A DNA stretch of 57,841 bases from a virus (IMGVR_UViG_3300023213_000324:1-57841), one strand, 5' to 3'; positions 17,979-54,819 are shown, counted from the first letter of the stretch. Numbers and translations: made by a program. The notes: generated by a model from the sequence alone, not told the origin.

Positions 17979-20186
17979 GTGAAGATACTCGTTACTGGTG
18001 CTTCTGGTTTTATTGGCAGTGCCTTTGTCATTCGTTTACTGGGTACCACCCAGTATTCTGTTGTTGCACTTACTCGGTGGACTGAAAAGAAGAACTACGC
18101 TAGACTACACGGTCCAGTTCGTGGAACTATTGTCAAGAAGGCTGAAGATGATGGTAGGTTGCGAGTGGTTTGTGGTGATTTACTACAGGACGTTTCCGGT
18201 CTCTGTGAAGGATGTGATGCTGTTATAAATTTTGCCGCGAAAACTTTTGTTGATCATTGCTATTCTGCCGATACAGAAGTTCTGACTAAACGTGGTTGGT
18301 TGTTTTGGCCTGAGGTAAAAGATGACGACATATTTGCTACACGCCATCCTAAAAGTGGATTGTTTCAATGGCAGAATGCTTTTGAAGTAGTTAGGGCTCC
18401 GTACGAAGGAGCTATGCTCAGATTTTCAGGAAAAAGTTTGGATTTGTTGGTAACACCAAATCATCGTATGATTGGTAGAAAAGTAGTTGATACTAGGAAC
18501 TGGGTTTTGGGGAAAGAAGAGATTTTGAAAGCTAGAGATGTAGCTTCTATGCCTGTTTGTCATAGAGGAGTACCTTTTAGATTACCATCTGTTGTTTCTG
18601 GCTGGAATGGTAAGAAGGTAGATTCTACAATCTATTTGAGTCTTTTGGATGATTTTGGAGTTAAGTATAGTCGTAAATCGTATTCTTTGCAGCTTAGAGA
18701 TTGGGTGGCTTTTTTGGGCTTATTTATTGCTGAGGGGTTTGTCGCTGGGACTTTAAGAAAAGAGAAGACAAATCGCCAGAAAAAGCCTTTGTTTGTTAGA
18801 GCTATAGCAGCCTCTTCTAGCGAAGAGAAGACAATCCCAGTAGCTAAAGGTCATTATTCTGTTTCTATTTGCCAATCATTTTCTAGTCGGCATATTACAA
18901 AGATAAGAGCTTTGTTGAAAAGGTTACCGTGGAGGTTTAGTTTCCAAAAAAATAGCTTTACTACTTCGAACAAAGTCTTATATTCAAATCTTTCTGTTCT
19001 TGGAAATTCTTATACAAAAAGAGTCCCACAATGGTTAAAAGAATTACCTACTGAATATTTGGAAGAGTTTGTTAAGTGGGCTTGTATGGGTGATGGTTGG
19101 GTTGGGAGCAGGAAAAGTGGGCGCTCATATTCTTATTCTACAGTTTGTCGTGGTTTGTCTGAAGATATGTTAGAGATTTTTCAGAAGTTGGGGATGGCAG
19201 CCAGCCTGGGTGTAAGCTCTGTGCCGTTGAAAGTTAGGCGTTTTGTTGGGAAGGGTTTATCAGATATAGCTCCATTGTATCAAGTTCGGGGTAGATCGAA
19301 GATGGTAGTAGCGATTTCTAAAGCTTGTGAAGAACAATACAAAGGAGTAGTTTATTGTGCAGAAGTTCCGAATGGTAGCTTGTTTATAAGGACTAAAAGA
19401 AGGAATAGTTACTATCCAGTATGGTGTGGAAACTCGATAAGAGACCCTTGGCCATTTATCAATACCAATGTCGTAGGAACGTACAGGATTCTCGAAGACG
19501 CTAGAAAACAAGGAGTCAAATATTTCATTCAAGTCTCGACGGATGAAGTTTACGGTGCGATACTCGATGGTGCCTACAGTGAAGATTCTAGAATCAATCC
19601 TACGAACCCGTATGCTGCTTCGAAGGCCGGTGCCGATGCTTTGGTTATATCGTATGCGCATACGTTCGGGATGTGGACGGCTGTAACTAGAACTGAGAAC
19701 AACTATGGGCCGTTTCAGCATCCGCAGAAGGTGTTTCCGACTTTTGTGGGTAAGGCACTTAGAGGCGAGAAACTTCCTGTTTATGGTGATGGAAAACATC
19801 GGAGGCAATGGCTTTGGGTTGATGACCATGTTGACGCGATCCTCAAATTATTGTCTCGTGCCATAGAAGGTGAAATTCATTACGGTGACAAGATAAGTTC
19901 CGGGCAAGTGTTTCATGTTGCTGGTTCTCAAGAGTTGGAGAATTTGGAGCTTGCCAGAAAGGTTCTTGATGTCCTTGTCGCAAAGAAGAGCATTCCTTCT
20001 TATGGAGACTATGACAGTTGGATAGAGATGATTCCTGATCATAATATTCGTCCGGGTCATGATAGAAGGTATGCTTTGGTTTGCGACAAGATGCAAAGTT
20101 TGGGTTGGTCGCCTAAAGTTTCTTTGCAGGAGGGAATAGAAAGAGCTGTGGCGTGGTATGCCGAAAACAGGTGGTGGCTTTCTTGA
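17979..20186 (+). CDS. rmlB: dTDP-glucose 4,6-dehydratase containing an intein
   Basis: TGASGFIG, STDEVYG, PYAASKAGAD, NNYGPFQHPQK, RPGHDRRYA. Confidence 0.92.
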   Translation: MKILVTGASGFIGSAFVIRLLGTTQYSVVALTRWTEKKNYARLHGPVRGTIVKKAEDDGRLRVVCGDLLQDVSGLCEGCDAVINFAAKTFVDHCYSADTEVLTKRGWLFWPEVKDDDIFATRHPKSGLFQWQNAFEVVRAPYEGAMLRFSGKSLDLLVTPNHRMIGRKVVDTRNWVLGKEEILKARDVASMPVCHRGVPFRLPSVVSGWNGKKVDSTIYLSLLDDFGVKYSRKSYSLQLRDWVAFLGLFIAEGFVAGTLRKEKTNRQKKPLFVRAIAASSSEEKTIPVAKGHYSVSICQSFSSRHITKIRALLKRLPWRFSFQKNSFTTSNKVLYSNLSVLGNSYTKRVPQWLKELPTEYLEEFVKWACMGDGWVGSRKSGRSYSYSTVCRGLSEDMLEIFQKLGMAASLGVSSVPLKVRRFVGKGLSDIAPLYQVRGRSKMVVAISKACEEQYKGVVYCAEVPNGSLFIRTKRRNSYYPVWCGNSIRDPWPFINTNVVGTYRILEDARKQGVKYFIQVSTDEVYGAILDGAYSEDSRINPTNPYAASKAGADALVISYAHTFGMWTAVTRTENNYGPFQHPQKVFPTFVGKALRGEKLPVYGDGKHRRQWLWVDDHVDAILKLLSRAIEGEIHYGDKISSGQVFHVAGSQELENLELARKVLDVLVAKKSIPSYGDYDSWIEMIPDHNIRPGHDRRYALVCDKMQSLGWSPKVSLQEGIERAVAWYAENRWWLS
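18258..19433 (+). mobile_element. Intein with LAGLIDADG homing endonuclease in RmlB (392 aa)
   Basis: N-junction VDH|CYSADTEVLTKRGW; block B VTPNHRM; FLGLFIAEG and MGDG motifs; C-junction WCGN|S. Confidence 0.9.
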
Positions 20187-22250: not shown

Positions 22251-22482
22251 GTGGGCTGTTGCAGGAGAATTGCTTTCGTCTTTGAGAGATGCTGAATGTT
22301 TTTGTATAGATATTAGTCCGTCATGTTTGCGTTGTCCATTTTGTCATCAGTTGGTGTCGATGACAAAAGCTACTTTACGTCTGGGAGTAGACGGAAGGAT
22401 TCTTGAAGACGTTGTATTGGAACATGAATCTTGTACAATACAAATAGTGGACGGAGTCGCGTCGAAAGTGGGTGTGGGGTGA
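22174..22482 (+). CDS. Hypothetical protein
   Basis: Fills the gap; CPFC motif; start uncertain. Confidence 0.45.
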   Translation: MSSMASNGQKKFPIHLVTLKTLVEDRWAVAGELLSSLRDAECFCIDISPSCLRCPFCHQLVSMTKATLRLGVDGRILEDVVLEHESCTIQIVDGVASKVGVG

Positions 22483-22961
22483 CAGAGCTCGAGTTGCTCA
22501 TTTCCAAAAATGCCAATGTTGCTAGAGGTATCGTTGTCAAAATGCTAAGACGATATCCTGACGACGTTGATGATGTATTGCAAAATGCTGCGATAAAAGT
22601 TTTTCGTTTCTCGCGAACGTTTCGTGCCGAGTCGTCTTGGAGGACGTGGTACTGTAGAATCGTTATACGTGAAGCATTGATGATGCTTCGCAAGAAAGCT
22701 TCAGAAAGATTTTGTCCTCTTGAAGATGTTGTTCAGTATTTTCATGGGAATCCCACCGTTAGGTTTTCCGATCGGTTTGAAGTTCGTAGAGAGCTGTATA
22801 GAGGTGTGCGTTTGCTTTCGCCCAAGAGGCGTGGTGCTATCCTTATGTATTTACTGGGTGTGGAGCAGACAGACAATACTTTGAAGAGTCGTAGGTTCCA
22901 GGCCAGGTCTTCTCTGAAGAAGTATTTTGCTGAGCGAGGTTTCTTGGAAGAGGTTGTATGA
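22479..22961 (+). CDS. ECF-type sigma-70 family factor
   Basis: DVDDVLQNAAIKVFR...FRAESSWRTWYCRIVIREALMMLRK (region 2); LSPKRR...TLKSRRFQAR (reduced region 4). Confidence 0.85.
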   Translation: MTELELLISKNANVARGIVVKMLRRYPDDVDDVLQNAAIKVFRFSRTFRAESSWRTWYCRIVIREALMMLRKKASERFCPLEDVVQYFHGNPTVRFSDRFEVRRELYRGVRLLSPKRRGAILMYLLGVEQTDNTLKSRRFQARSSLKKYFAERGFLEEVV

Positions 22962-35360: not shown

Positions 35361-36217
35361 GAGATGCTATTGTGTTTTTTAGTGGAGGTATGGATAGCTG
35401 GATTCATTTGTTGTGGGCTAGAAGAGAGTTCGATACTATGATGGCTTTGTATGTCGATTTTGGTCATAAGTACGCTGAGAATGAACTCCGTCATGCAGAG
35501 AATTTGTGTGACTATCTAGGCGTCTATTTGAAAGTTGTCAAGCTGCCTTTTGGTGAGTTTGAGCAGGCCGATTCTTTCCTCCCACTCCGTAATCTCTTCC
35601 TACTCCAGATCGGTTCTTATTTTTCTGACAATCTTGTTTTTGGGATGTTGTATCATGAAGGGCCGCCCGATAAGCGTTCGGGTTTTGTGACTAAGATGGA
35701 AAAGTTGTTGAATGCTCAGTATAATGATAAGAAGTATTTTGAGAAAGAAAGAAAGATACGAATTTGGACGCCATTCGCTACGAAGACAAAGACGGAGATG
35801 GTGTCGTGGTATTTTAAGACTATGACTGATGATTATGGGTTCACGCCAGATTTTGTTAGTCAGCTTATGAAAACAATAGGATGCTATGATCCTGTTGGTA
35901 GTTGTGGTAGATGTATAAGTTGCTTCAATCGGTGGGTAGCCCTTACAAACAATGGATTGGAAGAAGAGTATTCTTATTATCCACCGTTGTGGGCTGCTGA
36001 ACAGTTTTTGGTTGGGAAAAAGAAAAGACAGAGTCTGGTTAGTCCACTTGCCGTTCTTTACAAGTGGAAGTACGTGAAAGAGATTTATACTGCCATGAAA
36101 AAAGTGCTTTGTAGAAATCCATTTTTTGTGGCTGTTGAGCTTTGGCGCAGCAAAGATATTCAGGCTTTCAAAGATGCGTGTATTTATCCAAATCGTGTTC
36201 GAAGAGTATCTACATGA
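35357..36217 (+). CDS. queC: 7-cyano-7-deazaguanine synthase-like protein
   Basis: FSGGMDS PP-loop, LPLRNL, CY...CGRCISC. Confidence 0.8.
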   Translation: MRDAIVFFSGGMDSWIHLLWARREFDTMMALYVDFGHKYAENELRHAENLCDYLGVYLKVVKLPFGEFEQADSFLPLRNLFLLQIGSYFSDNLVFGMLYHEGPPDKRSGFVTKMEKLLNAQYNDKKYFEKERKIRIWTPFATKTKTEMVSWYFKTMTDDYGFTPDFVSQLMKTIGCYDPVGSCGRCISCFNRWVALTNNGLEEEYSYYPPLWAAEQFLVGKKKRQSLVSPLAVLYKWKYVKEIYTAMKKVLCRNPFFVAVELWRSKDIQAFKDACIYPNRVRRVST

Positions 36218-36915
36218 CACACCCACAGACGGACATCGTCATACCTGTGCATGGTCGAAGAGATTTGCTAGAACCTCTTGTCGAAGGGATTTTTAAGCAT
36301 ACGCAGAATTTTAGATTAATTCTCGTCGATGATATGTCTGATGTAGAGACAACGGCTTACATGCTTGGTATACTACAGAGGCAGTCGATTGCTTTGTACG
36401 TTAGAACGGGCCAACAGAAGTGGTTTACTAGAGCTAGTAATTTGGGGTTGAGGTTGGTACGGACGCAAAAAACCGTACTTCTGAATTCTGATTGTGTCGT
36501 TGATGTTGGCTGGTTACAAGAGTTGTATGATGTTTGGGATGATGGAATTGCTAAAGGGTTACGGGTCGGTCTTGTCGGGTCGGTCTTGTCAGGTGAAGAG
36601 TTGCGTCGTTGGGCTGAATACAATGAGCCTGGATATGTTACAGGTCATTGTATACTGCTTGACATGGCTATCATTTCAGAAGTAGCCAATAGAAGGGGTA
36701 CGCCTGGATGGTATCTCGATGAAACGAGGCACGATATGTTGCATATCAATTCCGACAGGTTTCTGTCGTATGACATTAACCGGATGGGGTATGCTACGAT
36801 TGCAGCATTCAAATCTGCGGTTGGTCATTACGGAGGACAGTCGTGGGGTTATAACTTAGGACGACTAGCTTCTGTTAAAATTGGTGATGCCGAGAAAGGA
36901 GAAATTTCTGGTTAG
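36214..36915 (+). CDS. GT2 glycosyltransferase
   Basis: DIVIPVH, LILVDDMS, FTRASNLG, LLNSD. Confidence 0.88.
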   Translation: MTHPQTDIVIPVHGRRDLLEPLVEGIFKHTQNFRLILVDDMSDVETTAYMLGILQRQSIALYVRTGQQKWFTRASNLGLRLVRTQKTVLLNSDCVVDVGWLQELYDVWDDGIAKGLRVGLVGSVLSGEELRRWAEYNEPGYVTGHCILLDMAIISEVANRRGTPGWYLDETRHDMLHINSDRFLSYDINRMGYATIAAFKSAVGHYGGQSWGYNLGRLASVKIGDAEKGEISG

Positions 36916-37056
36916 TCGTTATGTATGTTAGTATCGTAATACATGAATGAATTTGTTAAGTGGGAGTGTATCGCGTGGCTCGAATGAATTGACTGGTAGG
37001 ATAGTTTCGAAGTCTGTGAATGACTTAGTTTAGACGAGAGTGTACCGAAGGTCGCG
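36910..37056 (+). ncRNA. TIGR-like dual-repeat guide array 2 (~4 units)
   Basis: gtatcg-taatacatg-aatgaatttg-ttaagtggg-agtgtatcg-cgtggctcg-aatgaattg-actggtagg-atagtttcg-aagtctgtg-aatgactta-gtttagacg-agagtgtaccg-aaggtcgcg. Confidence 0.8.
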
Positions 37057-37065
37057 AGGGTTACA

Positions 37066-42104: not shown

Positions 42105-42940
42105 TAGGTAAAGACAAAGTTCTGATTATCATGCCCGAGTATTTCGAAGATTTTCTGTGGGCTCTTCCTGTGGGACAGACATACCTTATGTATGGTGAGT
42201 GGAAGTTGGATAGAATGTCTGAGTGTGTTGTTGTTTGTAAAGAAGAGTACAAGTTTCTCGCCAAGATGGCGTTTCCACTTTCCAATATTTGTTGTAGTGT
42301 AGATAGAGAGAGTCTAGATTTGTTTGACGTAGTGATAGCTTTTGACAGAGAGAAAGCTATCAGGATTGGGTGTGTAGCGAAGCTTCATGCTGTGGTTTGT
42401 TATGGGATATCTTGCGGTGCCAATTCCGGCGCGTTCCTGCCTACAATAGGACAGAAGCTGACTTACGACGATTTGAAGATTGTGTTCGTACAGCGTTCAG
42501 TTATGGATTACAAGGGGCTTGATTACCAGTATCCGTTCAACAAAAACAGGTATATTTTTGAGAAAGCTTTTGCTGGTGCACACCTTTTTGAAATGCCATC
42601 GGATACGCCAGTGGACGTTGCTTATGAAGAACTGAGCTCTGCTGCTTTTGTTTTTGGCGTTGTAGGTGGTTATTCTTTGCTCGCTGCTTCGATGCAAAAA
42701 CCCGTACTGGAAATCTATCCTGAAAAGAGTCTTGTGTATAGAGAGTGGGGCGCGAAGTGGTCTAATTCCATGTACAAAGTGATTCCAGCCGAGATAGAAC
42801 AGGTGGCACCGGAGTTTTTGGCTTCGACGCTTGATAGATTCATAGGCGAGCTCTCAAAGAGGGGGAACAAATGGCGTTCACTGACAACCCTTCCTTCTAC
42901 CGACCGGGCGGGCGAGCGCTTAATTCAGATGGAAGCATAA
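42101..42940 (+). CDS. Divergent GT9-like glycosyltransferase
   Basis: LIIMPEYFEDFLWALP; LLAASMQKPVLEIYP. Confidence 0.6.
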   Translation: MIGKDKVLIIMPEYFEDFLWALPVGQTYLMYGEWKLDRMSECVVVCKEEYKFLAKMAFPLSNICCSVDRESLDLFDVVIAFDREKAIRIGCVAKLHAVVCYGISCGANSGAFLPTIGQKLTYDDLKIVFVQRSVMDYKGLDYQYPFNKNRYIFEKAFAGAHLFEMPSDTPVDVAYEELSSAAFVFGVVGGYSLLAASMQKPVLEIYPEKSLVYREWGAKWSNSMYKVIPAEIEQVAPEFLASTLDRFIGELSKRGNKWRSLTTLPSTDRAGERLIQMEA

Positions 42941-43230
42941 CCATTGTTTGTAGTTTGTGCGAGCGTCCGATAATGAGGAATCGGTATCAGGGCTTCTCAA
43001 CTGCTGTACATTCCAGATGCGATAAATTGTATAATGATGGTATGACGCCTGAAGAGATTCAAACTCTTATGGCCAAAGAGGAAAGTCAGGAAGAAGTAGT
43101 GAGAAAAGTTGTTGATGATTTGGGTTCTGGTATGTTTAGAGCTTCGGGTATGAAAAAGAAAGTGAAAGAAGTAATGGAGGCGATTCGTGAACGAGTTACA
43201 AGAAAACGTCGAAACATCCTTAAAGATTAG
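42871..43230 (+). CDS. Hypothetical protein
   Basis: 119 aa; GAGGGGG RBS. Confidence 0.6.
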   Translation: MAFTDNPSFYRPGGRALNSDGSITIVCSLCERPIMRNRYQGFSTAVHSRCDKLYNDGMTPEEIQTLMAKEESQEEVVRKVVDDLGSGMFRASGMKKKVKEVMEAIRERVTRKRRNILKD

Positions 43231-43942
43231 TGACAAGAAGTATCCGGTAGCTGAGATTTTCACCTCACCGCAGGGTGAAGGGTTGTATACCGGAACTTTG
43301 ATGACATTTATTCGTCTCGCTGGCTGTTCTGTTGGAAAAAAGTTTCCAACAGAAATGTATCATGATACTGATTTTCCGGTTTATCTTGAGCAATGCACGA
43401 CGTATGACGGAAGGGCGTTTTGTTGTGATACAGATTTTAGAACAAAGAGTGTAATGAGTTTAAAAGACATCATGAAGCAAATTCCAGATGATGTTGTTCA
43501 TGTTTGTATAACTGGTGGTGAGCCATTAATTCATGATTTGTCGCCATTGATTGCGTTTCTTATTGCTCGACAGACTAATGCGAAAGTGTATGGTCCGTTT
43601 ATCCATATAGAGACGTCTGGTACTGTTTCTTTGTCGTCATATATTGCTGAATGTATAGAAAACGGAATAATTTGGTTGACAGTAAGCCCAAAGCTGGGAG
43701 TATTGCCTGATGTTCTAGACTTGGCTGATGAAGTTAAGCTTTTGGTGGATGATGATTTTGATGAAAGTAAACTTCCAGTGGGCAAGTGGCAAGATAAAGT
43801 TGGGACTATTGTTTGGATTCAGCCGATCAATGGTGAGAAGTCGATACACGCACGGAATATGGGAAAAGTTTTGGGGCTCCAGAAGAGACATTCTCTTTGG
43901 CGTATCTCCAGCCAGATGCATAAGATTTGGAGTGTTCGTTGA
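43187..43942 (+). CDS. queE: 7-carboxy-7-deazaguanine synthase (radical SAM)
   Basis: EIFTSPQGEG...FIRLAGC...CDTDF...CITGGEPL...IETSG...TVSPK...QMHKIW. Confidence 0.9.
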   Translation: MNELQENVETSLKISDKKYPVAEIFTSPQGEGLYTGTLMTFIRLAGCSVGKKFPTEMYHDTDFPVYLEQCTTYDGRAFCCDTDFRTKSVMSLKDIMKQIPDDVVHVCITGGEPLIHDLSPLIAFLIARQTNAKVYGPFIHIETSGTVSLSSYIAECIENGIIWLTVSPKLGVLPDVLDLADEVKLLVDDDFDESKLPVGKWQDKVGTIVWIQPINGEKSIHARNMGKVLGLQKRHSLWRISSQMHKIWSVR

Positions 43943-43943
43943 T

Positions 43944-44228
43944 ATGGCTACAGAGACACGTATTTTCACTTGTACGAATTGTAAGAAAGAAGTCCTTGTC
44001 GAGCTTCCTGCCTTTGAGGTTGTAAACGGAAAATTTGTTTCTGCTGTGTTTTTTGCCCACCCGAAGCCTGATGTTTGTAATCATTGTGGGCAGACGTTTT
44101 TGTTTGCTATAAATAAGCAGGCCGCAGTGAATGTTAATTTTGCTTGGTATCCTATCGTTGTAGAAAAAGAGCAAGAATCAAACATTATTCTGCCACCATC
44201 GAATGTTGATAAAAAGAAATTCATGTGA
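43944..44228 (+). CDS. Zn-ribbon hypothetical protein
   Basis: CTNC...CNHC. Confidence 0.6.
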   Translation: MATETRIFTCTNCKKEVLVELPAFEVVNGKFVSAVFFAHPKPDVCNHCGQTFLFAINKQAAVNVNFAWYPIVVEKEQESNIILPPSNVDKKKFM

Positions 44229-44236
44229 GGTGAAGG

Positions 44237-44824
44237 ATGTCGTTGTATAGAACACGCCAAGTAGATTTGAAGAATAAGATAGCAGAATTGGTCAGGAAGG
44301 CTTACGACGAATGTGGTGTATCTGTAGGTTTGCTAAAAAACACCTATCTTGTACGGGTTTTGCCGAAAGAGCAGAGATCTGGAAATGTCATAATACCAGA
44401 CTTGGATGGCCCGGGAAAACAGAACAAACCATTGTATGAGGCTGTTGTGCTTGCTGTTTATGAGTCGTATACAGTTGATGAGTGGATAAAGAATAGTTAC
44501 AAACAAACAGAAAGTGAGCCTGATTGGGTCTGTAAACGTTATTGGGTCGAACCAGCTTGTAAAGTAAATGACCATATCTTGTTTCAGCATTGGGAAGGTA
44601 TTCCTGTGCCACCATTAGATATGGGAATTGGCGAGTACAGGATTCTGAAAGAGCACATGATTGTAGCGATCGTCACGTACGATAGAGAGAAAATAGAAGA
44701 CGAATTGCATGCTTTGTTTGGTGAACGAGTTTTGTTGCAAGTCGATGAAGTTGTTAAAAGCATACTTAGTAAGTACGATGTCATTCCAAAAAATTTATCA
44801 TGCAAAACTTTGTCGGGGGCTTAG
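44237..44824 (+). CDS. GroES/Cpn10-like co-chaperonin with extensions
   Basis: LVRVLPKEQRSGNVIIPD...AVVLAV...KVNDHILF...YRILKEHMIVAIV. Confidence 0.75.
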   Translation: MSLYRTRQVDLKNKIAELVRKAYDECGVSVGLLKNTYLVRVLPKEQRSGNVIIPDLDGPGKQNKPLYEAVVLAVYESYTVDEWIKNSYKQTESEPDWVCKRYWVEPACKVNDHILFQHWEGIPVPPLDMGIGEYRILKEHMIVAIVTYDREKIEDELHALFGERVLLQVDEVVKSILSKYDVIPKNLSCKTLSGA

Positions 44825-47743
44825 ATGGCTACAGCCCCTGCGGGCTTTGTAAGCAAAACGAAGACGCTAAACAAACCAGACCCAGTATTGTGCCGAGAGC
44901 AGTTGGAAGCTCTTAACATACTCTGGAAAGCCTGGGGCCCTGAAGTCTTTTGTCGATTTTTTGTTAGTATCCTTCTAAAGAAACCTGTCCAGAGAACTAT
45001 TTCCGGAAAAATCGTAAATACCAGACTTGTTCCGTATACGTACCACCGTATCAACAAAGATATGGAGAAGACGTTTACGAAGCGGAATATCACTCTGAAG
45101 CCTCGTCAGATTGGCGCTACGACGTACCACATCATCCGTCGTTTGTATCTGCCAACAATACTCGAGATGGGGACTTCGTCGTTGTTGATTTCTCAGACGA
45201 AGTCTTACGGCTTGCAACATTTCGCTATTCTGTCGCGTGCCCATAAACATTTCATGCAGCATCTGCCGATGGGCATGTCTCATCTGAACGATATCGCTGA
45301 AGAGCTTCATAGGAATTTGTTACACACTCAGTATTCTCCACGACATGAGCTGGTGTTTGATTTTCTCGATAGTCGGATACTTGTCGATTGTCTTGGTCCA
45401 AATACTTTTGTACAGATGGGTGATGGTGAGTTGAAGAAAATATGTGAAGTTAAAGTAGGAGATTGGGTGTCGTCTTCTAAGGGCTACAAGACGAGAGTTA
45501 GTTGGGTTGGTTCGAAAGATGCTGAAGACCATCAATATAAAGGTCAGGCTTATAGAGTAGAAGTTAGACATCACACAGGTTTTGATGTAATTTGTAGTCC
45601 AAATCATAAGTTCTTGACTCAGCGAGGTTTGGTTAAGGCTAAAGATTTGTTAGTCGAAAAAGATTTTTTGGCTATACCCAAGAAGAAGTTTACTGGAATT
45701 GTTAAGTGTTTAAAATTAAATCAGCTACAACGTTTGCCTGGAAGTGGTAGTGGTTCTCAGCCAGTTAGGGTGAAAGAAGACTTTGAGCTTAATAGAGAAA
45801 CTGGTTTTGCTTGTGGTTTGTATTTGGCAGAAGGAACAATGAATGCGAATAGACCAATTGGTTTTGGATTTTGTCTAGCTGGAGAAAGTGAGATTGCCTT
45901 GTTTAAGAGGGCAGCTAAAGCATTTCGACCTTATCTGGTTGGTGTGAAAACTTATAGATATCATCGTGGGCCAAAGAAGATAATTTTCAGCTGTACTGGA
46001 AAGGTGTTTACTGAGTGGTTAAAACAGAATATTGGTTGCAAAAAAAACAAACATGTTCCTGACTGGATATGGGATTCGCCAAAAGATTTTGCTATCGGGT
46101 TTCTTGAAGGATGGCTTTGCGGAGATGGGGGAGTTGGTTGTAGAGGAAGAAGCGTAACAGGAGTTTCTATTCTTTCTCGTGTAGCAGTAGTTATGAGAGA
46201 TGTGGCTATAGCTCTTGGTCTTGGTGGAATCGGATTACTTTATCAGAAGTTAAGGCGCAGAGAAGTAGTTATGCCTGACGGACATATTGCTCGTATGTAT
46301 CCGAATAGGTTTGAAGTTAGAATAATTGGCGTTTCGATGGATAGGTTGATGTCGCTTGTAGGTGGTAAGAGGCTTAGTGGAAAGTATAGTTATAAGTCTT
46401 ATGTCTCTAAAAAGAAAGTTCAACCATCGCCAAAATATTGGTTTGAAGATGAACAGTTTGTTTATTTTAGGTTGAAATCAGTTTCGAAAACTTTTTGTAA
46501 GAAGTTTTGGGATTTGACGGTAGAGAACCCAGAACATTTGTACAGATTGCCATTTGCTGTAACGCACAATACTTCCGAGAATCCTGAGGTGGGTCAAGGG
46601 TTACCGGGTATTAGCCATCTTGTCTGTACGGAGATGTCGAGGTGGAAAGTCGGGCCACTCCATAGTCCTGAAGAGGCTATGGCCAACGTGAAAGAATCTG
46701 TTCACAGTGAAGGTACAGTTGACATTGAATGTACGGCTAATGGTATGGGTGGTTATTTCTTTGAAGAGTGGCAGAGAGCCAAAAACGGTGGCGAGTTCGT
46801 ACCGCATTTTTACCAGTGGTGGTTCATGGAGGAGTATGAAGAGCGAAATACGAAGCTGACCTATTCCGAGCTTGATGATAGAGAGAAAGAGTTAGTCAAG
46901 CAAGCCAATCTGACTTTGGGCCAATTGTCATGGCGAAGAGGAAAGGTAATCTCACTACGTCATAATTTTCCTGAAAAATATCCCGAGGATGACATGCTGT
47001 GCTTTTTGACGACAGGGTCTGGTTTCTTTGAGAGAGATATTTTGGCTAGAAAGAAACTGGAACTGATGAACCAGAAGCCTATTGAAGTTCATGGTAATGG
47101 TGATTATGTTGTTTACAAGCGCAGAGTGAAGGGCAGAAGGTATGTAATCGGTGCTGATTGTTGTGAAGGTAAAGAAGTATCAGAAGGTAATTCTGACTTT
47201 AATGCTGCAGTTGTTCTTGATGAAGAGACTGGTGAAGAGATGGCTGCCTATCGTTCAAAACTTCCACCTGAAGATTACGGTGTAGAGTTGGTTGATATAG
47301 CTAGAGAGTACAACAATGCCTTGCTTGGTATTGAGAGAAACAATCATGGTGGAACGGTGCTGTTGGTAGTTCAAAGGCAATGTATGTACGGGAACATTTA
47401 CTATCACAAGGAATGGTTCAGGGAGAGAAAGCAGGTAGTTGAAGTTGCTGGGTTCCCCACAAACCAACGTACACGACCAATCGCTCTGAATAAATGTGCC
47501 GCATGGGTCAGAGACGTTCCTGAGCTGATTCACGATACTACGTTTGTTGATGAAGCACTTGTTTTTGTGCGTGATAAGAAAACCGGGAAGCCACAAGCAC
47601 AAGCTGGCTGCCATGATGATACTGTAATGGCGAGGGCTGTGGCAACTTACATTCGTCTTGTAAAGTTGGGTTATCTCGACCCCATCGAATCCCCATCTGA
47701 AAAGTATGGTGAAACTGAGGCCGAAGAAGATAAGGCTGCCTAG
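44825..47743 (+). CDS. terL: Terminase large subunit containing an intein
   Basis: LKPRQIGATT Walker A, ECTANG motif III, IGAD...D.NA RNase H-like domain, ERNNHG, HDDTVMA. Confidence 0.93.
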   Translation: MATAPAGFVSKTKTLNKPDPVLCREQLEALNILWKAWGPEVFCRFFVSILLKKPVQRTISGKIVNTRLVPYTYHRINKDMEKTFTKRNITLKPRQIGATTYHIIRRLYLPTILEMGTSSLLISQTKSYGLQHFAILSRAHKHFMQHLPMGMSHLNDIAEELHRNLLHTQYSPRHELVFDFLDSRILVDCLGPNTFVQMGDGELKKICEVKVGDWVSSSKGYKTRVSWVGSKDAEDHQYKGQAYRVEVRHHTGFDVICSPNHKFLTQRGLVKAKDLLVEKDFLAIPKKKFTGIVKCLKLNQLQRLPGSGSGSQPVRVKEDFELNRETGFACGLYLAEGTMNANRPIGFGFCLAGESEIALFKRAAKAFRPYLVGVKTYRYHRGPKKIIFSCTGKVFTEWLKQNIGCKKNKHVPDWIWDSPKDFAIGFLEGWLCGDGGVGCRGRSVTGVSILSRVAVVMRDVAIALGLGGIGLLYQKLRRREVVMPDGHIARMYPNRFEVRIIGVSMDRLMSLVGGKRLSGKYSYKSYVSKKKVQPSPKYWFEDEQFVYFRLKSVSKTFCKKFWDLTVENPEHLYRLPFAVTHNTSENPEVGQGLPGISHLVCTEMSRWKVGPLHSPEEAMANVKESVHSEGTVDIECTANGMGGYFFEEWQRAKNGGEFVPHFYQWWFMEEYEERNTKLTYSELDDREKELVKQANLTLGQLSWRRGKVISLRHNFPEKYPEDDMLCFLTTGSGFFERDILARKKLELMNQKPIEVHGNGDYVVYKRRVKGRRYVIGADCCEGKEVSEGNSDFNAAVVLDEETGEEMAAYRSKLPPEDYGVELVDIAREYNNALLGIERNNHGGTVLLVVQRQCMYGNIYYHKEWFRERKQVVEVAGFPTNQRTRPIALNKCAAWVRDVPELIHDTTFVDEALVFVRDKKTGKPQAQAGCHDDTVMARAVATYIRLVKLGYLDPIESPSEKYGETEAEEDKAA
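45389..46570 (+). mobile_element. Intein with LAGLIDADG homing endonuclease in TerL (394 aa)
   Basis: N-junction LVD|CLGPNT; CSPNHKF; GLYLAEG and GWLCGDG; C-junction WDLTV...VTHN|T. Confidence 0.92.
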
Positions 47744-47756
47744 CTGAAAATAGTAC

Positions 47757-47803
47757 TTGACATGAAAATAGGTTTAACCTATAATTATTCGTGTACGGGA
47801 TAC
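47757..47803 (+). promoter_or_regulatory. Consensus sigma70 promoter P1 with TGTACGGGATAC leader
   Basis: TTGACA 47757-62, 17 nt, TATAAT 47780-85. Confidence 0.85.
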
Positions 47804-47883
47804 CGCCTTTAGTAGTTAGAGTAGGCTGTTATTGGTATCCCATAGGGCTGCTCCAAAACGGGCAGCCCTATATCCTTTAAAAG

Positions 47884-48075
47884 GAAAGGAAAATAGACCG
47901 ATGGAAAAAGTATTTTGTGACATATGCAGTAAAGAAATGAAGGATAGAAATACGGTTGAAGTCTACGATGCCGAGAAAGATGATATGTCTTTGGCCTTTG
48001 ATGTTTGTAAACCTTGTGAGAACAAAGTTGTTAAGGCATTGAATGCTTTGAAAAAATCTGTAAAGTAGGAAGGAC
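47884..48075 (+). repeat. 192-bp exact repeat, copy 2
   Basis: Identical to 20804-20995. Confidence 0.95.
47901..48068 (+). CDS. Small Zn-finger protein, copy 2
   Basis: Identical to 20821-20988. Confidence 0.75.
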   Translation: MEKVFCDICSKEMKDRNTVEVYDAEKDDMSLAFDVCKPCENKVVKALNALKKSVK

Positions 48076-48142
48076 GAAAAGTAGTTAAGTAGTTGGGTCA
48101 GTTCAATAGAACGAAAAATTTTGAAAAGAGAGGTAGCGAACG

Positions 48143-49156
48143 ATGTCGAATGAGAAAGAAGTGAAGAATCTAATCGATCCTGAGGCTTTGCCAATCGTCA
48201 GTTCTGGAACGCCGACAGTACAACACAAAGAAGATTTTGAAACTATCGCTCATAACGCTGGTGTGGGTATCGGCGGAGATGATTTGTATGAGCGTTACGG
48301 GAAGTTGGTTTATCTTTTTGACAACAGCGGGTCGATGGACAGCCGGATGCCGATGTCTGATAGTCCATCTTTGTATGAGTGGGATGCAGAGCTTTTGAAA
48401 AAGTTCCGTAAAGCCATGCAAGAGTATCTTGAAGCACAGAAAGATTGTGATGTTGATGAAGGAGAAGAAGATGAGTTCGATGACGTGCTTGATGCCGAGC
48501 CGCTCTTTGACTCCATTCCTTTTGACGATGAAGAACTCAAGCGTCTGATTGTTGATGCTGACCTTGCCGATGAGTTCAAAATCAAACTGCCGAAAACGTA
48601 TAACCCTTACGGCAGTTCCGGTAAGTCGAAGATTCAAGCTGTAAAAGATGCGGCTAGGGGGTTTGTCGAGAATCGATTCGAAAAGTATCCTGATGCCAAT
48701 GTCATGGTTTTTGGTTTTGCCGAATCCGCTTCTGTTTTTGCTCGAGGTGCTGGCAAAGAAGAAGTTCTGAACGGTGTTGAAAGTCTTGATGCTCAGGGCG
48801 GTAATACCAGAATCTTTACTGCCATGAGAACAGTGATTGGTGAGTTCAAGAAACGTCCGTCACAAGTTCGATGCCATCATGTTGTTTTGGTGACTGATGG
48901 GTTCGATAACGATTCAGATCTCATGACGGGTCATCTGTCAAATTTGCAAGAACTGGGAATCGTTGTTGATTTCATCTTTGTAAAGGGGCATGACGATTCA
49001 CAAGACGACAATCGTCTCTACAAAGAAAAGATTGACGCCATCAGGTTGGTTTGCGAAAAGACAGGCGGTGAGTATACCGAAGTCAATACCGTTGATGACT
49101 TCGAAACAAAGTTCCTTGCTGTTTCCAATCGACCAATGCTTCCTTGGAAGGGCTAG
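48143..49156 (+). CDS. von Willebrand factor A domain protein
   Basis: MIDAS DNSGSM...GGNT...LVTDG. Confidence 0.85.
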   Translation: MSNEKEVKNLIDPEALPIVSSGTPTVQHKEDFETIAHNAGVGIGGDDLYERYGKLVYLFDNSGSMDSRMPMSDSPSLYEWDAELLKKFRKAMQEYLEAQKDCDVDEGEEDEFDDVLDAEPLFDSIPFDDEELKRLIVDADLADEFKIKLPKTYNPYGSSGKSKIQAVKDAARGFVENRFEKYPDANVMVFGFAESASVFARGAGKEEVLNGVESLDAQGGNTRIFTAMRTVIGEFKKRPSQVRCHHVVLVTDGFDNDSDLMTGHLSNLQELGIVVDFIFVKGHDDSQDDNRLYKEKIDAIRLVCEKTGGEYTEVNTVDDFETKFLAVSNRPMLPWKG

Positions 49157-49160
49157 TTAG

Positions 49161-49171
49161 TTTTGTATAAT
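49161..49171 (+). promoter_or_regulatory. TTTTGTATAAT promoter-like motif
   Basis: Recurrent motif; upstream of small ORF and array 3. Confidence 0.55.
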
Positions 49172-49185
49172 AAGAGAGACTAGCT

Positions 49186-49384
49186 ATGACGCATACTTTC
49201 AAGAAGGGCGAACAGGTTCTGTGGCGGGAGTGGATTGGTGTAGTCCACTCCCTTAGACCTACAAAGGTGTATGTGTTGTTCTACGGTGGATGATGGCCGA
49301 ACTGTTACAGGAGGCCATTGGCACAAGCCGGAAGAACTTCTAAAGATGGAGGATTTGAAGAAGTACTTCCAATATGCCAATTAG
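49186..49384 (+). pseudogene. Small SH3/Tudor-like ORF apparently split by a 1-nt frameshift
   Basis: MTHTFKKGEQVLWREWIGVV...VLFY then +1 frame VDDGRTVTGGHWHKPEELLK...YAN*. Confidence 0.4.
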
Positions 49385-49584
49385 AGATTCGGCGCATGTG
49401 TGATGTATCGTTGGTGGTAGAAAGATTTGCTGATTTCGTTTGTTTCGTGTCAAGAGAAAGATTTGTGCTTTATGTTTGTTTCGTGTTATAAGAAAGATTC
49501 GTAGACTACGATTAAATGTCGCAACATGTGAAAGATTTGCGCATGCAGTGTTGTACCGAAAAACTTGTAAGACTGTGGAGGTAG
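49383..49584 (+). ncRNA. TIGR-like dual-repeat guide array 3 (~5 units)
   Basis: gtatcg-ttggtggtag-aaagatttg-ctgatttcg-tttgtttcg-tgtcaagag-aaagatttg-tgctttatg-tttgtttcg-tgttataag-aaagattcg-tagactacg; exact 36-nt period in the centre. Confidence 0.85.
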
Positions 49585-49587
49585 CAA

Positions 49588-50700
49588 ATGGCTAGAAGAA
49601 ATAGAACGTCGGCGCCACCAATCCCTAAACCGCCGAAGCCTCAGCGGCCACAAGGCAAGGCTTTACGGGAGCTGTATAAAGGTTTGGTGACGTTGTCTAC
49701 TTCAAATCGCATCAATTCTTTGGCTTCTGCATTGCAGTGGTTCGATTCTGCACAGGTGTGGATGTTGTCTAGAAACAAGGGCCAGCCTCTCGATCCGAAA
49801 ATCGTCAGAGCCATAGAAATTGCTGTAAAGAGTAGAAAGGTCGGGATATCAGCAACTATGGAGGGAGAGAAGGAAACCGCTTTCTTGATGTCCGTACGGA
49901 ACTATGAGAAAGCTTGTAGTATAGTCAAACCTGTTTCAGTAGACAAGTATTATACTGAGCTTGAAGCGAAGAAACAGAAACTCGAACAGCGCCAACAAGT
50001 TGCTGCGAATCAGTACGGAAACCTTTTATCTGAACTGGCTGTTGCTGGCGGTGGCGAAGTACGGATGCTTGTTTTCGATGGGCCCAAGACACGCCAGCTG
50101 GTGCCATCTTCGTTTGAGATTATCTACAATCGTGAAGGCGCCAAACAAGTTGTGGAAACGATAAAGCGTCAGGGTATGCTTTCTGCTTTCGTTGCCGAGC
50201 TCGATATGATGTCTCGTTGCTTGGCTTTCGAATCGAACGGTGTTGGTGGCTTTCAAGTCAACGCTGAGAAGTATATCGCTGCGCAGAGTCGTTTGATGAA
50301 GAACTTCGTCAAACATTATGGAACCATGCCGAACGCCAACCGTTTGGTACGGCCTGGCGCTACGGCTGAACATGGTTTAATACAACAGCCTCAGCCGGCA
50401 TCTACCCAGCCTAAGGCTCCTCGGCAGGGAGCGCCACAGCGGACGCCTATTCGTCGTAGTAGTGCTCCTAAAGTGGCTGGAAGGTATGATGCCGCCTCCA
50501 CTATGGCATTGCTTTACAATAAGCTGAGAGACGGGCATCTCCACAAAATAACCGATATCCTGCAGGGAGTTCCTGCTGCTGACCCAAAGGGTCGTTTGGT
50601 CAATCTCGGGAAAGATGTCAAGCGATTCAATTGGGGTACTTTCGAGTGGTTGGGTGACGGTGTGAGAATGATACTGACACAAGAACAGGCGGCTGTATGA
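49588..50700 (+). CDS. Hypothetical protein with C-terminal putative winged-helix-like domain
   Basis: GGAGG RBS; C-terminus similar to a domain in 56090-56914. Confidence 0.75.
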   Translation: MARRNRTSAPPIPKPPKPQRPQGKALRELYKGLVTLSTSNRINSLASALQWFDSAQVWMLSRNKGQPLDPKIVRAIEIAVKSRKVGISATMEGEKETAFLMSVRNYEKACSIVKPVSVDKYYTELEAKKQKLEQRQQVAANQYGNLLSELAVAGGGEVRMLVFDGPKTRQLVPSSFEIIYNREGAKQVVETIKRQGMLSAFVAELDMMSRCLAFESNGVGGFQVNAEKYIAAQSRLMKNFVKHYGTMPNANRLVRPGATAEHGLIQQPQPASTQPKAPRQGAPQRTPIRRSSAPKVAGRYDAASTMALLYNKLRDGHLHKITDILQGVPAADPKGRLVNLGKDVKRFNWGTFEWLGDGVRMILTQEQAAV

Positions 50701-50957
50701 GTCTCAGACTTTTCAGGTTGTCAAATAAAGCCCGCATGGGTTGTTGGGTGTTTGCTGAGAATGAAGAAGAAGCTAGAGAAATTTTCAAACTCGATGGGCG
50801 GGTTAAGTCTCTAGCAAACATAACTTTTGTACAAGATCAGACTGACTTTTACACACCCACCACAAATCTTTCTGAAGTGACCGAGAAGGGTCCTGCTTGC
50901 ATGAGGATTCCGGGACGTATTTGGGAAGTTTCTTCTCTCTGGAGAAGGGCTGTATGA
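50697..50957 (+). CDS. Hypothetical protein
   Basis: ATGA overlap; VFAENEEEARE motif. Confidence 0.65.
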   Translation: MSLRLFRLSNKARMGCWVFAENEEEAREIFKLDGRVKSLANITFVQDQTDFYTPTTNLSEVTEKGPACMRIPGRIWEVSSLWRRAV

Positions 50958-51169
50958 GCCAAGTAGCCGAAAGCAAACTGTGCCTTGAGACAGGGAAGCA
51001 TCGTCACAAATCTAGGGTTGCAGCACAAGCCCATCTACGTTCTGCGGTGGAACAAAATATTTTGGAAGGTGTAGTTGTTGATAGAGTCGTTTATTCCTGT
51101 AAGTATTGCCTTGGTTGGCATATCGGACGACAGAAGAAAAGTGCTCATAAAAACAAATATCGAGTTTGA
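50954..51169 (+). CDS. Small Zn-binding phage protein
   Basis: C..GKHRH...VYSCKYCLGWHIG. Confidence 0.7.
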   Translation: MSQVAESKLCLETGKHRHKSRVAAQAHLRSAVEQNILEGVVVDRVVYSCKYCLGWHIGRQKKSAHKNKYRV

Positions 51170-51172
51170 TTT

Positions 51173-51272
51173 TGTACGGGATGGGATGACCTAACACACG
51201 GGGAGTTGCTACCTCGCCCTTGTGGACAAGAGATTAGCATCTTTCGTTCTCTCTAGTCTCTTGGTCATCCCT
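51173..51272 (+). ncRNA. Structured leader upstream of the TasA-like gene
   Basis: GGGATGACC/GGTCATCCC closing stem enclosing two hairpins; starts with TGTACGGGAT. Confidence 0.5.
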
Positions 51273-51326
51273 AGAAATTCGGAGAACGTGGGCCAAGTAA
51301 AAATTGAACGAAGGAGATGATAGTAA

Positions 51327-52265
51327 ATGAGAAGCACTACAGTTGCACCGGTTGAAGGTTTCGATCCGGTAAGTAAGTTGACAGCTGACATCAAGAAAGC
51401 GGCTATTACCTTGACCGACAAGGAAGCAAGATTTCTTGTCGACGGGTATTACTCGTTGCAAGGGTACAGAGTCGCATCAGGGAACCAGATTATCGCTCTG
51501 AGGAAATCAAACGAACCGAATGCTGTGTTGCGTTGGTTCAATGAAAACGCCGAGACTCTTGAAATGCAGATGAGGCGTGCTCTTGACGCTTACTCCGAAA
51601 CGAAAGTAGTCGGTCGTTGGTCAAAGTCCATTTGTGGAATAGGGCCAGTGATTTCTGCCGGCTTGCTTGCGCATATTGATATGTATCCTTGGCGTTGTCA
51701 GGTAGCAAAACTCGATCCGAAAGAAGACGCTTGTTCAGAGAAGAAGCCTCACGAAAAAATGGGTTGTGGTAAGCAACCCATTGCAACTGCCGGCCAGATT
51801 TGGCGATTTGCCGGTCTTGATCCTACTGATGTTTGGAACAAGGGTGAGAAACGGCCTTGGAATGCCGCCCTCAAAACTCTCTGTTGGAAGCTGGGAGAGT
51901 CGTTTGTAAAAGTCCACAACAATCCAAATGACTTTTACGGAAAATTGTATACCGCTCGTAAAGAGTGGGAGACTGAGAAGAACAAACGTAAGGAGTATGC
52001 CCACCTAGCTGCTGACAAACTGGCAAAGTTCAAAATCGGAAAGAAGACTGAAGCGTACAAAGCCTATATCGAAGGGTTTCTTCCTGATGGTAGAATCCAT
52101 GAGCGTGCCAAACGATACGCCGTGAAGATTTTTCTATCTCACTGGTTCACGGTTGCCTATGAATCGACTTTCAACAAGCCGGCTCCGACGCCATATGTCA
52201 TTGCCTATCAGGGGCATACGCATATGATTCAAGTCCCGAACTGGCCGATGGTTGAGGAGAAGTAG
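51327..52265 (+). CDS. TasA-like Nop-domain protein (IS110 C-terminal-like, no nuclease domain)
   Basis: RFLVDGYYSLQGYRVASGNQI coil; ICGIGPVISAGLLAHID; TAGQIWRFAGLDP; RPWNAALKTLCW; HERAKRYAVKIFLSH; no DEDD RuvC or HNH; dual-repeat array directly downstream. Confidence 0.8.
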   Translation: MRSTTVAPVEGFDPVSKLTADIKKAAITLTDKEARFLVDGYYSLQGYRVASGNQIIALRKSNEPNAVLRWFNENAETLEMQMRRALDAYSETKVVGRWSKSICGIGPVISAGLLAHIDMYPWRCQVAKLDPKEDACSEKKPHEKMGCGKQPIATAGQIWRFAGLDPTDVWNKGEKRPWNAALKTLCWKLGESFVKVHNNPNDFYGKLYTARKEWETEKNKRKEYAHLAADKLAKFKIGKKTEAYKAYIEGFLPDGRIHERAKRYAVKIFLSHWFTVAYESTFNKPAPTPYVIAYQGHTHMIQVPNWPMVEEK

Positions 52266-52269
52266 AAAA

Positions 52270-52397
52270 CATCATTCGGACGATGTGTGAGTACCGGATA
52301 GTAGAAGTGAATTGTTACTAGGGACTTTGTATCGTTGACATAGAATGAGTTGCAGTTTCAGTTAGTTTCGTTGAAATGGAATGAACAGAGAGGCTAG
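52270..52397 (+). ncRNA. TIGR-like dual-repeat guide array 4 (~3.5 units), adjacent to the TasA-like gene
   Basis: gtaccg-gatagtaga-agtgaattg-ttactaggg-actttgtatcg-ttgacatag-aatgagttg-cagtttcag-ttagtttcg-ttgaaatgg-aatgaacag-agaggctag. Confidence 0.8.
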
Positions 52398-53255
52398 ATG
52401 AAAAGAGCCTTATTCAAGTGCTGTAATCTGATAGGAGACGCTCTGTTTGCGTCCCCTATTCTCCAGCAGTGGCACGAGAAGAATCCTGATTTCGAAATAG
52501 ATCTCTTGACGCTACCTGATCACGTTGCTGAAGTGTATAGACATTTTGGTGTTCCTTTGAACGTATTGTTTGACGCTGACAGTTCAAAGTATGACTTCTA
52601 TCACAATTTCGACATCGGGAAAGCATTTAGCTTGGGTGATGCTAAGAAGCTTCATGCTGTAGAGGCTGTAGGACAGATTCTGTTTGGCCCGGATTACATC
52701 GCTCCAACGTTGAAGCCAATCTTCATTCCCGATGAGGAAGAGCATGAGAAAGATTTGATTCTCATTAGCCCGTTTTCTAGGAGTTGTTCTTCGAACCAGA
52801 AAGATAGCTTAGGTAGGAGTAATCCACCTAACAAAATGATTCAGTGGCCACACTGGCTACAGATAGTAACTCTGCTTAGAGCTTATGGGTCGATTGGTGT
52901 TTTGGGTGGAAAAGATGACCACTGTCCTTTGCCTATCGCCGAAGACGAGTACTATCTGAATCTATCGTTAAATCATGTAGCCTTGTTGCTACGCGATTGT
53001 AGGATGTTTGTTACCATCGATAACGGTATGGCCCATTTAGCTTCGTCTCAGACGACGCCAACGATAGAATTCTATCCTGCCTGCTTGGCGGTTAGGTGGG
53101 CTGCACCGTTGGGCAATCCAAATCTGTACATAGCTCAAGTAGATCCAGCAAACATTTCCGTACCGCAGGCACTCTATGTTGTTAGAAGTGGAATTGAAGC
53201 TTTATTTTTGAGGAGGAAGAAAGATGAAAAAATCTGGCAAGAAGAAGTCCGCTAA
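52398..53255 (+). CDS. GT9-like glycosyltransferase
   Basis: LIGDALFASP; FVTIDNGMAHLAS. Confidence 0.85.
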   Translation: MKRALFKCCNLIGDALFASPILQQWHEKNPDFEIDLLTLPDHVAEVYRHFGVPLNVLFDADSSKYDFYHNFDIGKAFSLGDAKKLHAVEAVGQILFGPDYIAPTLKPIFIPDEEEHEKDLILISPFSRSCSSNQKDSLGRSNPPNKMIQWPHWLQIVTLLRAYGSIGVLGGKDDHCPLPIAEDEYYLNLSLNHVALLLRDCRMFVTIDNGMAHLASSQTTPTIEFYPACLAVRWAAPLGNPNLYIAQVDPANISVPQALYVVRSGIEALFLRRKKDEKIWQEEVR

Positions 53256-54604: not shown

Positions 54605-54819
54605 TGCCTATGTCAAAAAAGCTTGCAGCTGCTGTTGCTGAAATACTTGTTCAAGAGGTTGGTCGCGAGAAAGCCGAGAAACTCATGGATAGACTAGTCG
54701 ACCTAGTCATCATAGAGAAGGCTCCACATTCGCCAAAACAGTCTGTGATAGCCATCAGGAACTACGTTCTATTGTACCTAGCCAGTAGCTTTAAGAAAGG
54801 AGCAGCCGGTGGCAACTAG
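54601..54819 (+). CDS. Hypothetical protein
   Basis: GTGA overlap. Confidence 0.6.
   Translation: MMPMSKKLAAAVAEILVQEVGREKAEKLMDRLVDLVIIEKAPHSPKQSVIAIRNYVLLYLASSFKKGAAGGN

Follow-up and report, generated by a model that had tools for sequence, protein, structure and literature searches.

A probable TIGR-type mini-array between two phage genes, remote from the tas gene

All predicted genes of the virus record analyzed here (57.8 kb, rated about 48% complete) lie on the + strand, and a 150-nt gap separating a family 2 glycosyltransferase (GT2) gene from a gene for a putative membrane protein contains short sequence motifs that recur at regular intervals. Is this gap a source of guide RNAs and, if so, which effector would it serve? 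A sequence-only reading of the window (the whole stretch of DNA that was analyzed, 57,841 nt) had proposed that the gap holds guide-type units, that similar cassettes lie at four separate loci, and that all of them supply a single effector. Our follow-up indicates that the gap is probably a short dual-repeat TIGR array serving the only TasA protein of the phage. The analysis shows the anatomy of the array, its kinship with the tas-adjacent arrays of relatives, and the predicted fold of TasA. The features discussed in the text are listed in Table 1.

Table 1. Arrays, genes and promoter-like sites of the window, numbered from its first nucleotide
Feature	Position	Strand	Evidence or remarks
Array 1	2413-2905	+	12 clear units and a weaker first unit; ahead of GerE/sigma-region-4 gene 2885-3361
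Upstream gene, family 2 glycosyltransferase	36142-36915	+	Pfam PF00535 (E 1e-13); PHROG 3692
Gap between two genes	36916-37065 (150 nt)	+	From GT2 stop codon (36913-36915) to ATG (37066)
Array 2, probable TIGR-type dual-repeat mini-array	36926-37047	+	Direct reading, unit table, HMM, shuffles
Array 2 tail	37048-37065	+	Degenerate loop-like GAGGGTTACA, which is the Shine-Dalgarno sequence (GAGG) of the downstream gene
Downstream gene, 239 aa, one N-terminal hydrophobic helix	37066-37785	+	Translation
Perfect promoter-like site (12/12), TTGACA-17-TATAAT	47757-47785	+	In the gap after the terminase gene
Promoter-like site (10/12)	49144-49171		Ahead of array 3
Array 3	49405-49558	+	4 units and closing GTACCG; Tandem Repeats Finder period 36 (49419-49499)
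tas gene, TasA-type, Nop domain and coiled coil	51327-52265	+	PDB sequence search, AF2, Foldseek
Array 4	52291-52397	+	3 units directly after tas, into the start of a GT9-type glycosyltransferase gene
Perfect promoter-like site (12/12), TTGACA-17-TATAAT	53681-53709	+	Within ORF 53224-53751

Anatomy of the gap and its candidate effector

Dual-repeat TIGR arrays are described as successions of an edge repeat, a spacer A, a loop repeat and a spacer B, with repeats of 8–12 nt (PMC12045711). The same text gives spacers of about 9 nt, with exceptions, and a tigRNA of 36 nt; for example, SpTIGR has 16 variable nt per unit and a spacer A of 8 nt (PMC12045711). Read directly, array 2 comprises three complete head-to-tail units of 37, 36 and 38 nt and a closing edge. 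The edges GTATCG, GTATCG and GTTTCG start at 36931, 36968 and 37004, respectively, and each is followed after 8 nt by a loop, GAATGAATT in the first two units and GAATGACTT in the third, before GTACCG closes the array at 37042-37047. Edge and loop repeats alternate in all three units. The consensus of 22 aligned units is an edge of 10–12 nt (G-R-n2-4-GTWTCG), 8 variable nt, a loop of 10 nt resembling GAAWGAWTYG and another 8 variable nt. Array 2 has this spacing, with 8 nt after the edge in 3/3 units and 8 nt between the loop and a conserved G. The anatomy matches the published definition, and the guide-type units that had been proposed take the dual-repeat TIGR form.

Some details of the sequence-only reading need adjustment. 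It had described 9-nt spacers ending in G, and the nearly invariant G is better taken as the first base of the next edge, which leaves spacers of 8 + 8 nt. Its count of about 4 units is fair if the closing edge is taken together with the 8 nt and the degenerate loop GAGGGTTACA that follow it, but the complete units number three. It was right that the array fills the gap, which spares about 10 nt for a leader and 18 nt from the closing edge to the ATG.

The loops of array 2 resemble GAATGAWTTG but depart from the commonest form at their ends. Both repeat types begin GA/GR and mostly end YG across the 22 aligned units, and the loops of array 1 end CG in 8 of the 12 clear units (TCG in six); those of array 2 end TTT, TTG and TTA and could be somewhat degenerate. 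In published TIGR arrays the ends of the edge and loop repeats go together as box C/D-like motifs (PMC12045711). The starts (GA or GG) and frequent YG ends of both repeats across the aligned units may accord with this rule, although the loops of array 2 end otherwise.

Generic tools gave little at this site. Tandem Repeats Finder placed none of its 17 rows at array 2, the 8-mer GAATGAAT taken alone was not enriched (6 matches versus 3.7 expected), and a repeat search of the gap recovered fragments only, such as GAATGAATT twice at a spacing of 37 and a 38-nt pair at a spacing of 73. No Rfam family matched the gap and its folding yielded no stable structure (z +0.46), both as expected for dual-repeat arrays.

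We trained an HMM on the 19 units of the other three arrays, none of them from 36916-37065, and searched both strands of the window. The array 2 units were the best matches outside the training set, at 36967, 36927 and 37000 (10.8, 9.7 and 7.4 bits; whole-window E 0.035, 0.081 and 0.45), all on the + strand, in phase and spaced by 36–40 nt. The sole comparable untrained match (E 0.58), at 2416, was a further unit at the head of array 1 that had been omitted from training; outside the four arrays the next match had an E of about 1 and the remainder of at least 5. With 7.4–10.8 bits, array 2 falls among the lower half of the scores of array 1 units (9.5–16 bits). When the gap was shuffled 5000 times with its dinucleotides preserved and scored with the same HMM, no shuffle scored as high as 9.7 bits, three came to at least 7 bits and in no case did two matches of at least 7 bits occur together. 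The periodicity claimed earlier is thus significant against shuffled intergenic DNA. A loose regular expression (edge, 6–11 nt, loop start) run over the window matched once on the - strand and eight times on the + strand, the latter in three gaps (2490/2679/2869, 36931/36968/37004 and 52329/52365).

The candidate effector is the 312-aa product of the tas gene. It was detected only through PHROG 4285, annotated as 'transposase' (E 5e-45), and a sequence search of the PDB, where phmmer matched TasR in 9MTY, the TasR RNP entry of Faure et al. (E 5.7e-12), and TasH chains (E 0.004). A profile of the TasA family, which has 5653 proteins at E ≤0.001, matched 9MTY with an E of 3e-19. The Pfam Nop family (PF01798) had no match in a six-frame search of the window, nor was a Nop match found in a Pfam scan of 60 ORFs. 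An AF2 model built from a 27-sequence alignment (pLDDT 89.3, pTM 0.86) is all-helical from residue 14, and a Foldseek search of the PDB puts a TasH or TasR chain in each of its first ten ranks (probability 1.00), with the IS621 recombinase next. The match to TasR begins at chain residue 125, past the N-terminal nuclease part of TasR, which identifies the protein, by sequence and predicted fold, as TasA-type and nuclease-less. Consistent with this, Pfam finds no nuclease family (HNH or RuvC) in it. The family profile has exactly one match in the six frames of the window, in agreement with the single effector of the sequence-only reading.

TasA also has candidate processing residues. H297 is invariant in 27/27 sequences and Y290 in the 6 closest, and the two are 7 residues apart. 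The processing residues of SpTasH, Y289 and H296, are also 7 apart (PMC13421893); the profile alignment of TasA and TasH ends before the C-terminal Tyr/His loop. We also considered the gene beside array 1 (1660-2391) as an effector and rejected it, its best PDB match having an E of 0.56 and no Pfam or PHROG family being assigned to it.

Arrays of the window and of related loci

The four loci announced by the sequence-only reading are indeed separate arrays, and their 22–23 units come close to the roughly 25 guides that it had estimated. All four are on the coding strand and upstream of genes, and arrays 2, 3 and 4 run directly into the ribosome-binding site of the next gene with no terminator. 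The tas-adjacent array 4 is the joint-smallest of the four, and 19–20 of the 22–23 units lie outside it. Array 2 is 14,280 nt from tas, with about 20 predicted ORFs between them; for array 1, the largest, the distance along the contig is 48 kb or more.

Arrays 1 and 3 have an identical 8-nt stretch and loop in common (TGTCAAGA plus GAAAGA). The stretch at 2608-2621 equals that at 49448-49461, both reading the spacer A and loop start TGTCAAGAGAAAGA, and a 15-nt piece, TTTCGTTTGTTTCGT, also occurs in both arrays, the pieces being in a different order. These identities suggest that units were exchanged between arrays 1 and 3.

We searched the window for targets of 22 guides, taking spacer A with the reverse complement of spacer B in both joint arrangements and on both strands. 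The best self-targets had 2 mismatches in 14–16 nt, the same distribution as that obtained in 20 rounds with letter-shuffled spacers. The window covers about half of the genome, so self-targeting is compatible with this null result. The targets may belong to the host or to competitors, or be located in the half of the genome outside the window. In 596 billion bases of public genome sequence, chance alone would by calculation give hundreds of matches to the 16-nt target of each guide.

Among relatives, repeats of the same type adjoin tas. In locus L004, whose TasA is 54% identical, tas is for example immediately followed by an array of 2.2 kb that reads GTAYCG, 8 nt, GAGTGAGCC and about 8 nt, and that ends in a hairpin and T-run typical of a terminator. 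Arrays reading GTAYCG-N8-GARYGAG are next to tas in L004, L082, G002 and G003, and matches to the regular expression cluster solely downstream of tas in L002-L004, L014, L016, L069 and L071. We scanned G003 (111,942 bp, rated complete) and G002 (72,794 bp) over their whole length, each with an HMM of its own array. All 34 units of G003 and all 49 of G002 form one block beside tas; outside the block there were no clusters and only scattered single matches on both strands (E at least 0.59). The layout of the window is therefore unusual, as the sequence-only reading had held. How unusual is a matter of degree: array 2 is many genes away from tas, but other loci have sub-arrays a gene or two off it (L031 and L090, below).

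The closest comparison is with L082, a metagenome contig of 10.7 kb that encodes a TasA 75% identical to that of the window and is colinear with window positions 42611-53553, the encoded proteins being 60–80% identical. After tas, L082 has 8 units and a closing GTACCG versus 3 units in the window; before tas it has 3 units and a closing GTACCG versus none in the window; and where the window has the 4 units of array 3, L082 has a small ORF and at most one degenerate unit. The L082 array before tas has the same format as array 2. The edge (GTAYCG) and loop (GAAYGAGTYG) are kept in L082 and none of its variable stretches is common to the window. By these sequences, the repeats are conserved and the guides are not, and arrays were gained, lost and resized as the two lineages diverged. 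This retention of repeats with different guides argues for the TIGR interpretation. It also bears on the spacer turnover raised in the sequence-only reading, which is seen between the arrays of L082 and the window; for the site of array 2 itself no relative covering it was found.

A further comparison comes from G004, a complete 128.6-kb phage with terminal repeats whose GT2 homologue, the one found for this gene, is 61% identical to that of the window and which is colinear with it over at least 34.5–39.7 kb. Neither a tas gene nor, downstream of GT2, a TIGR unit is present in G004. The sequence of this one genome fits the idea that arrays travel with tas. Other searches for relatives were less productive. 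Single-sequence searches with tas against GenBank phages and IMG/VR (exact peptides) returned none, and neither did the QueC-like neighbor as a synteny probe. The Tas protein of the closest relative (P0003) as query recovered one 42% identical locus (L001), in which the repeat regular expression had no match.

We also ran a crude detector (chains of at least four exact 6-mers; length 3 gave 2.8 false positives per 57.8 kb) on 73 tas loci of at least 12 kb. Thirteen rows, corresponding to 11 distinct records, had two or three separate array regions, most of them flanking tas. L031, for example, has a second array behind a 400-aa gene, and L090 has three arrays within 2.4 kb. The dispersal of array 2 is thus an extension of a smaller-scale dispersal in relatives and differs from it in degree rather than in kind.

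The same detector found no array in 11/73 long tas loci (L007, L021, L026, L028-L030, L043, L052, L113, L126 and L152), which extend no more than 10 kb to either side of tas and are candidates for remote or divergent arrays. At 1580-1760 in L066, 8.4 kb upstream of tas, there is a periodic repeat of other sequence, with CGGACCCCTC and GGCTGCTC motifs, that is unlike the tas-adjacent array of that locus, may run on the opposite strand and could represent an additional array with no kinship to the first. In four long arrays of relatives, neighboring units resemble each other no more closely than remote ones do (mean Hamming distance 5.5–6.1 of 8 in either class), and on this ground we rejected array growth through tandem duplication followed by drift.

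Expression context and competing explanations

The + strand of the gap has no sigma-70-type promoter and no terminator-like hairpin, which suggests that array 2 is transcribed with its own operon. Most simply, the sequence predicts co-transcription with an operon of auxiliary genes, which around array 2 comprises QueC-like, GT2, PTPS, QueE-like and further glycosyltransferase genes. The gene downstream of the array matches no Pfam or PHROG family; a search of 5.8 billion proteins returned only the protein itself among 2229 candidates, and none was found in IMG/VR or GenBank phages. We found no relatives spanning both genes around array 2.

The operon belongs to an auxiliary block (17168-44228) that also encodes a nucleotidyltransferase, three GDP-mannose-dehydratase-type enzymes, a B12/radical-SAM enzyme, C-methyltransferases, an inorganic pyrophosphatase and several glycosyltransferases, in addition to the QueC-like, PTPS (QueD-like) and QueE-like proteins. 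This content suggests pathways of deazaguanine and sugar modification. Within the block, gene 17979-20186 codes for a 735-aa sugar-nucleotide epimerase/dehydratase whose N- and C-terminal matches are split by a weak LAGLIDADG match (residues 370–410), and probably carries an intein. It would be the second of the window, as the 972-aa terminase large subunit (44825-47743; PHROGs 24361 and 2) has a Pfam intein splicing domain. The terminase insert, of about 1.18 kb (about 45389-46567), is missing from L082 (2330-4024), an intein presence/absence difference between the two. The window has two sigma-related genes, one for the GerE/sigma-region-4 protein right after array 1 and one for a sigma-70 region-2 protein (22431-22961) after a 180-nt gap. 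Chaperone-like genes (44237-44824 and 54809-55729) encode proteins with a weak Cpn10 match and a GrpE domain, respectively, and a 33-nt tandem repeat (8903-8983; 2.4 copies, TRF score 99) lies within ORF 7996-9009.

What has been published on other TIGR-Tas systems suggests, by analogy, that array 2 may be transcribed, processed and used for target binding and repression as follows. The array would be part of a polycistronic message running from the glycosyltransferase gene to the membrane-protein gene, and TasA dimers would assemble on its edge and loop repeats. Cuts inside the edge repeats, for which either a host RNase or the Tyr/His loop at the TasA C terminus could be responsible, would release three tigRNAs of 36–38 nt. 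A DNA site of 16 bp would then be recognized through both of its strands, one paired with each of the two 8-nt guides of a tigRNA. Since TasA has no nuclease domain, the expected outcome is DNA binding and transcriptional blocking rather than cleavage. RNA-guided repression by TasA has been demonstrated (Xu et al., 2026, preprint). The idea of the sequence-only reading that arrays in different operons could supply stage-specific sets of guides is a hypothesis compatible with this layout.

Several observations weigh against the TIGR interpretation: array 2 has only three units, is remote from tas, lacks a terminator, deviates at its loop ends, scores lower with the HMM and has no guide target in the window. 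Some of them would also be expected if array 2 were a decaying or by-product copy, moved by recombination between arrays and passively transcribed, with no working guides. The low number of units, the loop ends off the commonest form and the profile scores in the lower range are consistent with decay; the coming and going of arrays between the window and L082 fits as well, and the 8-nt stretch and loop common to arrays 1 and 3 indicate that units are copied between loci. However, the exact architecture (8 nt, 10-nt loop, 8 nt, G-initial edge) is preserved in 3/3 units, the array closes with a proper GTACCG, as do array 3 and both L082 arrays, and L082 has a three-unit array of this format immediately before its tas. 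We consider a decaying copy unlikely, though it is the alternative that survives best.

In a second alternative, the repeats would encode no guide RNAs and would instead serve as tandem promoters or as sites to which a phage regulator binds. The units of array 1 can be read as TGTWTC-N17/18-CGTn, a form that resembles ECF-type promoters. The position of all four arrays upstream of coding-strand genes and the presence of regulator genes (2885-3361 and 22431-22961) fit as well. But array 2 has no CGTn element, and relatives hold 34–49 units in one 2-kb block beside tas, which in L004 ends in a terminator. Blocks of dozens of units ending in this manner argue against promoters or operator sites. 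Furthermore, the repeat type tracks tas, and the tas-less G004 has the GT2 gene without the repeats. This makes a regulatory role of the repeats very improbable. The weakest alternative, a chance resemblance in AT-rich intergenic DNA, has in its favor the silence of Tandem Repeats Finder and the unenriched GAATGAAT but is refuted by three in-phase matches to a profile never trained on the gap and by the failure of all 5000 shuffles to attain the second-best real score, and its probability is negligible.

Array 2 among known guide arrays

A TIGR array at the position of array 2 combines familiar and unfamiliar traits. Like the dual-repeat arrays described to date, it has alternating edges and loops, two short guides and a unit of about 36 nt, and it is phage-borne with a Nop-domain Tas in the same genome (PMC12045711). 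Its repeat type is, in addition, that of the tas-adjacent arrays of relatives. It differs in size, TIGR arrays having most often 5–15 units (PMC12045711), and in its position 14.3 kb and about 20 ORFs from tas, arrays being typically adjacent; Xu et al. (2026), for instance, place them on either side of tas or within it. It also has no terminator and runs into the next ribosome-binding site, whereas TIGR arrays typically end in a truncated edge followed by a rho-independent terminator (PMC12045711). Finally, it is one of four arrays in one genome.

A precedent for several physically separate arrays with one effector is a stem-loop TIGR array split in three sub-arrays with intergenic separations of ~450 nt (Faure et al., 2025; PMC12045711). 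Those sub-arrays are within the tas locus, whereas the arrays of the window are of the dual-repeat type and have many genes between them. The TIGR-Tas texts searched do not name 'orphan' arrays, and the supplementary tables and figures of these papers might contain remote arrays or the repeats of this clade. The term 'multiple arrays' is absent from the texts of Faure et al. (2025) and Xu et al. (2026), and 'distant' from the text of the latter.

Two other guide systems invite comparison. Orphan or mini CRISPR arrays occur in phages and plasmids and depend on an effector encoded elsewhere. Array 2 resembles them as a short guide array apart from the effector gene but has two repeats, a guide split in 8 + 8 nt and an effector of another family, which is encoded in the same phage genome. 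The other system is that of clustered, polycistronic box C/D snoRNA genes, which Faure et al. (2025; PMC12045711) mention in discussing their results. In both cases, guides bound by Nop proteins would be excised from transcripts carrying other genes. The snoRNAs, however, guide RNA methylation with fibrillarin, L7Ae and K-turns, none of which was seen here.

First described in 2025, TIGR-Tas still poses questions about its natural roles, its targets and the dynamics of its arrays. The system itself is known; what is new in this phage is the placement and organization of the arrays, not the mechanism. The comparison with L082, in which TasA is 75% identical, the neighboring genes are colinear and the guides are fully changed, bears on how TIGR arrays evolve. 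We propose, tentatively, that the guides of a single TasA may be distributed, in this lineage of phages, over small intercistronic cassettes with no promoter or terminator of their own. If so, the supply of guides would be tied to the transcription of particular operons, and the excision of guides would also sever the messages of those operons just ahead of the next ribosome-binding site. The present phage has TIGR units far from tas, in numbers as low as three and between the genes of an operon. With 19–20 of the 22–23 units outside the tas-adjacent array, annotation around tas alone would miss most of its guides. A locus-bound search recovered 6,685 arrays for 20,096 tas loci, leaving about two thirds array-less (Xu et al., 2026), and remote arrays, if common, may explain part of that fraction.
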